Source: a virus (taxonomy: Duplodnaviria; Heunggongvirae; Uroviricota; Caudoviricetes). From it: a DNA stretch of 4,586 nucleotides. The position numbers were made by a program. Where the stretch lies: the IMG/VR virus record IMGVR_UViG_2541047442_000023; one strand, 5' to 3'. Position 1 is the stretch's first letter. Every line of letters begins with the position of its first letter. Shown here in pieces: positions 1 through 3,000 of the stretch.

Positions 1-3000
1 AGGGGCGGCAGAGTTATCCGAATTGTAAAATTTGGTATCGTGCGCCATCTGTTTTCTCTGCTGGCGCAGCAGGTGCCAGTTGTTCAGGCTGACGGATGGA
101 TTGTAAACCAGAACGACCAGAAAAAACAAAACCCGCCGAAGCGGGTTAAGTGCGGGTGCGTTGAGGATGCCTGACACATCAGCGGTGGCGAGGGATTTCT
201 CCCCCGCCTGGTCTCTTACTCCTCAGGTTCGTAAGCTGTGAAGACAGCGACCTCCGTCTGGCCGGTTCGGATTCGTACCTCGCAGAGGTCTTTCCTCGTT
301 ACCAGTGCCGTCACTATGACGGTTAAACAGATGACGATCAGGGCGATTAACATCGCCTTTTGCTGCTTCATAACCTGCTTCTCCTTGCCTTTCGGCGCGT
401 AAGAGGCTAACCTACGTTTGTGAAGCATAGATTGGGCCTCAGATTAATGTTAAGCGTCTTGCAGGACGCGTAATGTTAACTGGGGCTTTTCTCTGTCTGC
501 CTTACGGTGGCATGCCCGAGGCAGACAGCCTCAAGCACCCGCAGCAATTCTACTTAACTCTCGCTTTACAGCAAACCGTTTTGCCCGATATGGGAATTCC
601 CATACGGAATGAATTCAGTTCCCCAGGCGCTCCATCAAAAACACAACCAGGCAGTAAACACCCACAACAGCAATAACAGCCAGAGCGCCTTCCATTACCA
701 GTGAAATATCATCCGACATATTCCCTCCCTTGGTGTGAATCCCGGCGAACGTTTTTACCCCCACCGACAAATAACATATACTAGAAAAGCAATAGCTATA
801 GCAACGCCTGCAAATGCATCTGGCCGGCTCATTGGTTCTCCCCCTGTGTCGCTTCTACTGCGATCTGACTGGCGTATTCGTTAATGGTAACGATAAGTTC
901 TTGCTCGGCCTCATCCAGACAACTACCGATACCTCGCCTGTCCACTTCAGAAGCATCGAAATCTGCACGAAGCCTGGCGACCTTCAGGATTGCGGACAAC
1001 ACCTCATCAGGGATTGCCGGAGAGTTGGTTGACGTTTCCGAGATTATCCGAAAATTATTGGTTGACGAACCCTTATTTTCCCGAAAGTTTCCAGCCTGAA
1101 GCATGGCGGCGCGGTGACACCAGATAATCCAGCCAAGCGCCATATCCCATGCCATGTAATCTCTATCGCCATTTTTTGCTCTGCGGCGATCTACAGATTC
1201 TCCGAAACGCTTCTCCATAAATAATTCATAGGCTGCTCGTTCATCCGATACTGCTGCCAGTGATGCCAGCGCAATCCGTGCCAGCTCTTCCGCTTCTTCT
1301 GCTGGAAGCACAACGTTGCTACCCGGTCCGTATGTTTCGCGCCAATGCTGGATTGTCAGCAGTCGATCTTTGGTAATAGTGGTCATAGCTATTTCACCTT
1401 AATCTCAACATTTCGCAGCTTTAGCTCTACTGGCATGTCTGACTTTCCTGTTAATGCTAATGCGAGATTTTCTGGAGTAATGAGAGCAGTTATTGTTTTC
1501 CCCATCGCCAGACGAATAATCATTCGTATTTCGCGATCGTCACATGCTCCTGGTCGAACAATTGATATTTGTCCGTTCATCTCACTCTCCTTTGATGCGA
1601 ATGCCAGCGACGCGTAATGCGTGTTCTAGGTCAATCAGGTAAAGCCAACTGCCATTTTCTTTAGGTATCATGACATGTCGCTCATCTGCATTTATCGGGT
1701 GTCCATATCGAAGGTCGTAGCGAGTCGGTAATTGAACTTCCCGCGCTTCCAGTTCAGCAATACGCTTGCTCCCATCAGAGATAACGCCTTCGTAATACTC
1801 ACGCTGCTCGTTGAGTTGTGATTTTGCTTCTTCCAGTCCATCCAGCAAATCAGCGATAATATCCGCTTCCCGATGACGGATGTGACGCTTAAACGCAGCA
1901 AGAGCCGCATCACAATCCCGTTCAGCATTTGGGCTGTCCGGGGTAGCCTGATACCACGCCAGCGTCGATTGATAGTTTTGTGCTGCCTCACGCAGTGCCT
2001 GATAGTCAATCTTGCCCACTGGCTGCCTCCTTTGCCGGGATTTCTAACTTTTGAGTGGTTGTATCAAATTCAAACAACTTAACCACGTCATCAAACAGGA
2101 CATAATCACCATCAGGATCTTCAGTCATATCAGCGCCACAATCCTGACCGCACGAGTCGCAACCTCCCATATCAAGCTCGTATCGCTTCAGGTTCGCGAT
2201 ATTTGATAAATTCAGCGCCAGTATAGCCAGATCATTAACCTCGTCTGCGATATACCCTGCACCATGTCCATACATTTCAATGCGGGATATGATTTCTTCT
2301 ACACGTTGTTTTGTGATCGTCATTTTTCTCTTCACTCCGATATACAAGGATTACTACACCCCCTCTGCTGATTGCGCGAGCTGGATCCCCTGGTTCCATG
2401 CCGTCAATTCCGAAGGCTTCGAAAAATGCATCTATTGCCTTTTGGCGTTGCTCCTGCTTACGGCGTTTATTCCATTTTTTCATGAACAACAGTGACAGCC
2501 ATCGTCCGCTGCAGAACATGATGTAGAAATAACCAAGGAGCGCTAGGCCGGTGTTCAGGGCTGTATCGATCGTTATCGTGGTGTTGATGTTCACTTCACA
2601 CCTCTCTGTTTGTTGATAAGTTCAATATCCTGCTGGCAACTGGCGCAAGCTCTGCATCCACGAACAGCCAGGCGTCGCCGCTCATCTATCGGATCGCCAC
2701 ACTCGCAACAATGAGTAGCAGATGGGGCATTACTATCGGATTTGTATTTTTGCAGGGAGAGATTGCGCTGCAATTCTTCGATTTCAGCGGCGTTGTCGAT
2801 GATATCTGCCATTTTCCTTTCCTTCAGGCATGAAAAAAGGAGCCGAAGCTCCTTTGGTTTTAGAATTCGAATTGCCTTGCCCGCAGGCTTTTCAGCATTG
2901 GTCTGGCCCGCTGAACTACGAAACTCGACTGGTCAAGCCGTGCCGCCTCTCTCAGTAGCACATCTCTGTTCTTCGTCACCATGTAGATGGTCTCAAACGC

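Follow-up and report, generated by a model that had tools for sequence, protein, structure and literature searches.

In the model of the hok/mok/sok (parB) module of plasmid R1, the full-length mRNA is closed by pairing of an element termed tac with a second termed fbi, and the Shine-Dalgarno (SD) sequence of mok is held by the upstream complementary box (ucb); the 3′-truncated mRNA forms tac/ucb and SD-mok/dcb pairs (dcb, downstream complementary box), and the nascent RNA folds into a metastable hairpin with tac (PMC9841398). A prophage-borne relative, hokW-sokW of Sp5, has been shown by experiment to be a type I module that assists lysis upon induction (Takada et al. 2021, PMC8621323). It encodes the toxic HokW and, under a separate promoter, sokW RNA, which neutralises HokW in a manner that depends in part on RNase III and Hfq. 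Here we describe a 4,586-nucleotide stretch of the viral record IMGVR_UViG_2541047442_000023 (Caudoviricetes), hereafter the window, whose minus strand carries between positions 122 and 575 an intact hokD-type hok/mok/sok module, a toxin–antitoxin system of type I from the Hok/Gef family, in lambdoid-prophage DNA.

Upon treatment with mitomycin C, sokW is lost while HokW builds up in the inner membrane, both in dependence on RecA, and deletion of hokW-sokW delays growth arrest and halves phage release, with no other growth phenotype (PMC8621323). The HokD peptide is also reported to be toxic, and 44,248 Hok homologues have been catalogued, with hok enriched about four-fold in prophages (bioRxiv 10.1101/2025.08.07.668861). 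Loci of this type, with their regulatory RNA architecture, their occurrence in lambdoid and Stx prophages and their wrbA-proximal position, are already publicly documented (933W GenBank annotation, RefSeq hokD annotation, PMC8621323 and the preprint bioRxiv 10.1101/2025.08.07.668861).

We estimate at roughly 90% the probability that the window locus belongs to the hok/sok family and is regulated in the canonical R1 mode. This reading is supported by the homology of every element, by the tac–fbi pairing with its covariation and by the thermodynamics of the alternative folds. A first-pass annotation of the window had claimed a complete hok/mok/sok locus, and every part that it named was found for the minus-strand locus, at or within a few bases of where it had been placed. 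Feature coordinates are collected in Table 1.

Coding regions of the locus

The Hok peptide (MKQQKAMLIALIVICLTVIVTALVTRKDLCEVRIRTGQTEVAVFTAYEPEE) corresponds to the last 51 codons of the 70-aa mok frame. It matches the Pfam family HOK_GEF (PF01848) over the whole profile with 81.6 bits (cut-off 22). The toxin had been taken for a HokD match, and its identity to K-12 HokD is 100%; 47 of the 51 residues are also identical to HokW.

The mok gene, described at first reading as in frame with hok, does share its frame (428-216 and 371-216). Both its SD and its start codon fall inside the Sok-complementary region 420-490, and its coordinates relative to hok are the same as those of mokW in 933W. The in-frame arrangement is that of hokC and hokW, whereas in R1 and hokB mok lies in the +1 frame relative to hok; the window mok is an N-terminally extended Hok.

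No relB or relE was found upstream of hok, as had been claimed, in that the open reading frames (ORFs) there have no RelE or RelB Pfam match. With a full leader present and no RelB or RelE domain in its upstream ORFs, the locus falls outside the definition of the K-12-type relBE-hokD operon. The absence of relBE is thus real, but such a free-standing locus is not unusual, as the leader-bearing form predominates: of 5426 complete Escherichia coli genomes, 3857 have a copy that covers at least 80% of window 100-600, leader included, and its RefSeq gene name is hokD. Copies of 100% identity to window 100-600 occur in complete O157 genomes, and 344 records match at 99% or more. The existence of identical copies in other genomes argues against decay.

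TadA-mediated A-to-I editing (Tyr to Cys) has been reported for K-12 hokD, whose coding sequence is identical to that of the window, at the site corresponding to the Tyr47 TACG motif (PMC5630033, PMC12214031). A second TACG in hok, at 277-274, is out of frame.

Pairing between the ends of the hok mRNA

Positions 540-529 at the 5′ end of the predicted mRNA (tac) pair with 154-166 in the 3′ untranslated region (UTR; fbi) through 12 base pairs and one bulged base (160), with a pair probability of 0.95-1.0 in the ensemble. None of 200 shuffled tac (5′) segments paired with the 3′ UTR as well as the real one. Complementarity between 529-542 and 152-166 had been read from the sequence beforehand, and these limits are essentially exact.

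A genome-collection scan with the Hok peptide yielded 53 loci, for almost all of which the 5′ end of the mRNA could be located with a leader profile. The R1 type, hokB and 933W were among the 38 loci of the pairing test, in which RNAduplex compared the first 14 nt with the 170 nt after the stop codon. In 37 of the 38, the best duplex has 11-13 bp and lies 45-56 nt past the stop codon. The tac–fbi position is conserved in Escherichia, Shigella, Kluyvera, Citrobacter, Photorhabdus, Pantoea, Erwinia and Kalamiella.

The helix also covaries. Pair 4 is UA in 11 cases, CG in 6, UG in 2 and unpaired in 1, as in the change from GGGUGC/GCACCC to GGGCGC/GCGCCC, whereas pair 12 changes from G-C to A-U (GAGG/CCUC to GAGA/UCUC) and hokB shows a change from U7-A to C7-G. 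The informative evidence for tac–fbi is its fixed location together with these compensatory columns. In the formal count of tac–fbi pairs, the loci divide into two registers, one with the bulge and one lacking it. Since MAFFT aligned them without gaps, a structure string drawn for one class counts the distal half of the other wrongly; we therefore use the six pairs of the proximal half and the per-locus duplexes alone.

Two loci were awkward for the procedure. RNAduplex returned a split pairing for R1, whose 3′ UTR has by inspection the expected GGCGCUU/AAGCGCC fbi. For L053, which gave no tac–fbi pairing, nhmmer had hit another leader, distant from the ORF in question, and we take this as a failure of the script's pairing and not of the locus. 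The covariation argument for the hok family was reportedly made in the 1990s, and the present test repeats it on new genomes, with the window locus as a clean worked example.

Promoter, leader and terminator of the hok mRNA

The 5′ leader had been likened to that of R1, with a proposal to scan it against Rfam. The scan matched 540-366(-) to RF01794 with 114.9 bits (gathering score 59, E=1.5e-26) over model positions 1-157 of 157. The same model matches the leaders of K-12 hokB, hokC and hokE, of the R1 type and of 933W. Its position 1 places the probable start site of hok at G540, and the distance of the putative -10 from the conserved mRNA 5′ end is the same in 933W (TAGAAT), hokC (TATAAT) and the R1 type (TATGAT). 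A consensus promoter scan called neither the hok promoter, whose -35 is weak, nor that of Sok.

At the other end, the claimed 3′ terminator was located as the stem 147-130 followed by a T-run, the sole terminator-like site in window 1-900. The RNA from 540 to 126 has a minimum free energy (MFE) of -174.6 kcal/mol (z=-7.96), and none of 100 shuffles was as good.

RF01794 carries the name ‘sok antitoxin’ and yet matches the hok-mRNA sense strand at every locus tested (the window, 933W, K-12 hokB/C/E and the R1 type); at L007, for instance, the match is at 602-754(-) and the annotated sokC at 653-711(+). Strand calls made with this model need inverting, because it fits the hok strand while the annotated Sok RNAs lie on the opposite one.

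Further candidates within the mRNA were set aside. A promoter-like site inside the leader, 453->424(-), is at chance level (2 found versus 0.8 expected) and its function is not conserved. Rfam matches to isrK (27.2 bits versus 50) and rsmX (21 versus 56) at 126-212(-) are below the gathering scores and consist essentially of a hairpin plus the terminator. The hok 3′ UTR at 126-207(-), with its hairpin 208-187 and terminator, does resemble the Salmonella small RNA IsrK at a sub-threshold level (27.2 bits, E=0.005), probably in shape alone. IsrK is likewise prophage-encoded in Salmonella, near an antiterminator gene.

The Sok antisense RNA

An antisense RNA candidate with its own terminator had been proposed over the mok initiation region. 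The plus strand at 420-490 can form a hairpin followed by UUUU (-29.2 kcal/mol, z=-5.2) and is collinear with sokW, which makes it a good candidate for Sok: its limits agree to the base with those of the ‘sokW’ misc_RNA in the 933W GenBank record. Five of the 71 nt differ from sokW, and the 5′ recognition tail holds four of these differences (counted over the first 16 nt).

The putative Sok promoter was read from the sequence, with the start at G420 seven bases beyond its -10. The -10 block is identical between the window and 933W, and it is this TAACCT block that primers YO-421/YO-422, listed for the promoter-less sokW construct, replace (PMC8621323).

Predicted RNA switch

The three RNA states of the R1 model were compared with the folds predicted for the window RNA. 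The full-length MFE structure (540->126) contains tac/fbi, at a probability of at least 0.95, so that the proposed folding check of the hok transcript comes out positive at the level of prediction; it also contains a helix of 486-480 with 442-436, which includes the mok SD. In the truncated MFE structure (540->168), tac (540-533) pairs with ucb (488-482) and the mok SD region (440-436) with dcb (407-403). The latter helix encloses an inner hairpin, 433-426/416-409, whose loop contains UUCA, which we take to fit YUNR, the U-turn motif of the Sok target in R1. In the nascent fold (540->490, 51 nt), 538-528 pairs with 522-512 as a 5′ metastable hairpin. The predicted folds thus reproduce all three R1 states; coming from one sequence, they are supportive only.

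By analogy with R1 and hokW, the locus would work as follows. A weak promoter would give a stable hok mRNA of ~415 nt, whose nascent 5′ end would first be held in the metastable hairpin. The finished RNA would be closed by tac (540-529) and fbi (166-154), with ucb covering the mok ribosome-binding site. Slow 3′ trimming would take off fbi, upon which tac would pair with ucb and the mok start region would refold into the Sok-target hairpin. For as long as it is made, the short-lived 71-nt Sok (420-490, +) would pair with that hairpin region and block translation of mok, and with it the coupled translation of hok, and the duplex would be marked for RNase III. Once Sok synthesis stops, Mok and Hok would be translated and the 51-aa Hok would damage the inner membrane. 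Transcription, 3′ processing, mok-hok translational coupling, RNase III cleavage and toxicity are presumed here from the work on R1 and hokW; with regard to processing, RNAs of smaller size have been reported for hokW (PMC8621323).

Several points weigh against this reading. The NCBIfam Hok-family and HokA models match Hok below their curated cut-offs (48.5 versus 73) and contribute no more than the Pfam match. The share of paired tac–fbi positions is biased upward because the segments were picked by duplex energy (RNAduplex), and the covariation covers tac–fbi, whereas the alternative folds are thermodynamic predictions. Since the Sok tail and the 3′ end differ from those of hokW, results obtained with hokW transfer by homology only. 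In addition, the chromosomal hok loci tested by Pedersen and Gerdes gave no post-segregational killing (bioRxiv 10.1101/2025.08.07.668861), and K-12 hokA, hokC, hokD and hokE are regarded as inactive (PMC5630033, PMC12214031).

Table 1. Coordinates of the hok/mok/sok locus and of neighbouring features in the window
Feature	Position	Strand	Remarks
hok promoter, putative	547-574	-	-35 TTGCTG 574-569, 16-nt spacer, -10 TAGAAT 552-547, +1 = G540
Full-length hok mRNA, predicted	126-540	-	~415 nt; 5′ end from RF01794, 3′ end from terminator
tac	529-540	-	mRNA 5′ end, GGGUGCUUGAGG
ucb (anti-SD of mok)	480-488	-	From predicted folds; matches R1 model
mok ORF	428-216	-	70 aa, same frame as hok; SD GAGG 440-437; ATG 428-426
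dcb	403-407	-	GCCUC; pairs with 440-436 in truncated and nascent folds (thermodynamic prediction)
hok ORF	371-216	-	51 aa + stop; SD AAGGAG 386-381; Pfam HOK_GEF; from ORF listing
TACG motif, Tyr47 codon (TAC)	230-233	-	In predicted 9-nt loop closed by helix 238-236/226-224
fbi	154-166	-	3′ UTR just upstream of terminator, CCUCAACGCACCC
Intrinsic terminator of hok mRNA	122-147	-	Stem 147-130, then T-run
Sok promoter, putative	385-413	+	-35 TTGCCT 385-390, 17-nt spacer, -10 TAACCT 408-413, +1 = G420
Sok-type antisense RNA, candidate	420-490	+	71 nt: 14-nt free 5′ tail, long interrupted hairpin, UUUU
DksA/TraR-like zinc-finger gene	2812-2591	-	Right arm
Ant gene	3489-2860	-	Right arm
attR core	~4058-4064		933W-type prophage
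wrbA, first 18 codons	4107->4054	-	MAKVLVLYYSMYGHIETM, running up to attR core
ymdF-like KGG-repeat ORF	4479-4586	+	35 aa

Genomic context

The window represents positions 1-4586 of the draft contig AVSF01000034.1 (GCA_000462725.2). The contig begins at window position 1, and hok lies 215 bp from this end. The right part of the window is the right arm of an Sp5/933W-type prophage and ends beyond attR in wrbA and a KGG-repeat ORF that is presumably shorter than K-12 YmdF. In 933W and Sp5, the right-arm locus is annotated as mokW/hokW/sokW or as ‘host cell-killing’ genes.

The first-pass annotation placed the locus at a prophage end. It does lie ~3.7 kb from the attR/wrbA junction, but the end next to hok is a contig terminus, and the block that holds hok (1-2608) otherwise belongs to a nin region. 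Window 1-2608 shares 99.2% identity with a block of the order P...DUF4752...Ead...hok...DUF968-RusA-Q in locus L065 and 94-98% with the Sakai Sp6 nin region, and for 1-1275 the identity with the PV15-279 nin region reaches 99.6%. Window 2320-4586, by contrast, is 99.6-100% identical to the right end of Sp5. The two blocks share ~290 bp of the DUF4752 gene. Their junction was not found among the best-covered matches listed from 5426 complete E. coli genomes, all of which stop at 2608. The repeat overlap and the lack of the junction in these matches point to a rare recombinant or else to an assembly that joined the blocks through the repeat.

It is quite possible, although we lean the other way, that the locus is real while its link to an Sp5-type attR arm stems from a chimeric assembly or from very rare recombination, in which case the source hokD would sit in the nin region (P to Q) of a different lambdoid prophage. 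The nearby contig end, the different affinities of the two blocks, their overlap in a shared gene and the end of the complete-genome matches at 2608 all fit this view. However, paired reads normally bridge a 290-bp repeat, shared modules of this kind are just where lambdoid prophages recombine, and the presence of hok/sok at the same position in 933W and Sp5 makes a gene-conversion-like replacement plausible; the junction search, moreover, took in the best-ranked matches only. Whichever origin the junction has, hok/sok is known in both native contexts, the nin region and the right arm. The discovery value of the locus is small, and it illustrates how the ends of draft contigs can disguise a nin-region module as a prophage-end module. 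If the junction is a genuine recombinant, the blocks would mark exchange points between co-resident prophages.

Two further elements lie in the right arm. Between Ant and attR, window 3530-3618(-) gives a full-length match to RF02221 (sRNA-Xcc1) with 69.1 bits (gathering score 53), which is present in 933W too (L004 6137-6225(-)). About 120 bp to the prophage side of the attR core, at 3852-3938, a 31-bp unit (TGTTTGGGGCACTATTGGGGCAAAATGTGGT) is repeated in tandem (2.8 copies, 96% match). These repeats, shared with 933W and Sp5, may be protein-binding sites of the att arm.

The scan also turned up loci of interest in other genomes. Very short contigs assigned to unrelated taxa carry HokD-type loci whose proteins are 96-100% identical to those of E. 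coli, namely Acinetobacter idrijaensis (L025, 275 bp), Xanthomonas pisi (L030, 431 bp) and a metagenome-assembled genome of Candidatus Scatousia (L063); these three look like contamination of the assemblies with E. coli or phage DNA. In Photorhabdus temperata (L044), two hok leaders (556-703 and 1185-1333) lie ~630 bp apart on one strand as tandem hok/sok modules, and Photorhabdus genomes hold many hok/sok copies.

Biological role

The role of the module is the least certain step. The first-pass annotation had suggested stabilisation or abortive infection. By analogy with hokW, the trigger would most likely be prophage induction, whereupon Hok would speed up membrane damage and lysis; the module might also stabilise the prophage post-segregationally.

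We consider it unlikely that the main role is abortive infection or superinfection exclusion, or plain post-segregational stabilisation, and not help with lysis on induction. R1 hok/sok on a high-copy plasmid does lower T4 plating (cited in PMC8621323), the canonical role of R1 is stabilisation, and a defence role is discussed alongside the four-fold enrichment of hok in prophages; yet the same preprint finds no enrichment of hok beside defence systems and recalls the lack of post-segregational killing by the chromosomal hok loci tested (bioRxiv 10.1101/2025.08.07.668861), and the sole direct test of a prophage hok/sok, that of hokW, pointed to a role in induction and otherwise gave no growth phenotype (PMC8621323).

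Wherever its surroundings were examined, hok runs in the direction of the adjoining early phage operon. Within the nin region (P to Q), it follows transcription from pR (L002, L065, Sakai Sp6 and K-12 Qin). In the right arm of 933W and Sp5, it is on the strand of int and the pL operon, and comes to lie downstream of pL-int once excision joins attL and attR. This orientation could form a built-in trigger, in which N-antiterminated read-through would meet the Sok promoter head-on. That this holds and that the junction of the nin block with attR is at the same time a genuine recombinant is, in our judgement, improbable. If true, silencing by read-through would explain the RecA-dependent loss of sokW reported by Takada et al., and in the nin context the hok terminator would be one of the N-dependent barriers before Q.

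It is very unlikely that the window locus is an inactive relic like K-12 hokA, hokC, hokD and hokE, silenced by point changes in promoters or regulatory helices: its weak hok -35, the failure of the consensus scan to call either promoter and the view that most K-12 chromosomal hok loci are inactive (PMC5630033, PMC12214031) would fit, but inactivation in K-12 is by insertion sequence (IS) elements or leader loss, neither of which the window has, all its regulatory helices are predicted to be intact, that of tac–fbi covaries, the hok -10 is conserved, spacing included, in 933W, hokC and the R1 type, the Sok -10 sits in a block identical to that of sokW, and 100% identical copies exist in several genomes, with 344 records at 99% or more.

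Comparison with known systems

K-12 hokC (gef)/mokC/sokC resembles the window locus in its in-frame mok, in its 5′ end (GGGUGCUUGAGG) and in its match to RF01794 (118.3 versus 114.9 bits). It differs in being chromosomal rather than in a prophage and in encoding a different Hok paralogue. Moreover, IS186 lies ~20 bp past the stop codon of hokC, which would leave no room for fbi and a terminator.

K-12 hokD (relF), in the cryptic prophage Qin, has an identical Hok protein and coding sequence, and both genes stand in a nin-type neighbourhood with a DUF968/ydfU gene downstream. The similarity is limited to window 385-122 (98%, 260/265), which takes in the hok SD, the 3′ UTR, fbi and the terminator. 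K-12 hokD lacks the promoter, tac, ucb, the Sok gene and the mok start, has relB-relE in their place and gives no RF01794 match. Because the similarity is restricted in this way, the K-12 relBE-hokD arrangement is the truncated exception and the window the usual state; the window locus shows the form that K-12 hokD had until relBE took the place of the leader.

In R1 hok/mok/sok, tac, the metastable hairpin, ucb, the Sok target, dcb, fbi and the terminator follow one another in the same order and spacing as in the window, and the Sok promoter is likewise inside the mok region. The leader is homologous (RF01794, 88.9 bits), and a compensatory change between the two tac–fbi helices is visible by eye, although that of the window has a 1-nt bulge. 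The R1 toxin is much more diverged (R1 Hok is 44% identical to HokW, a close relative of the window Hok; PMC8621323), and the R1 module is on a plasmid whereas that of the window is in a prophage.

The hokW-mokW-sokW locus of the Stx2 phages 933W and Sp5/VT2-Sakai is of the same family and has the same gene order and in-frame mok. Its tac and fbi are identical to those of the window, as are the position of Sok and the Sok -10, and it occupies the same place, in the attR-proximal right arm of a wrbA-integrated Stx-type prophage, upstream of genes for Ea22-like, DksA-like and Ant proteins. The two loci are 92% identical in nucleotide sequence over 144-582, and their Hok proteins differ at 4 C-terminal residues. 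They also differ at the 3′ end. The window locus and K-12 hokD have an intrinsic terminator, whereas hokW does not (933W L004 3340-3461 against window 122-147): the similarity stops near window 144, ~10 nt past fbi, and beyond fbi the 933W/Sp5 sequence runs into a ygiW-like gene. In the absence of a terminator, the hokW transcript may read into this ygiW/ydeI-like gene; a published Northern blot shows several hokW RNA species to which no origin was assigned (PMC8621323). Judged by its sequence, the window locus is of the same kind as hokW-sokW, in the form of a different allele.

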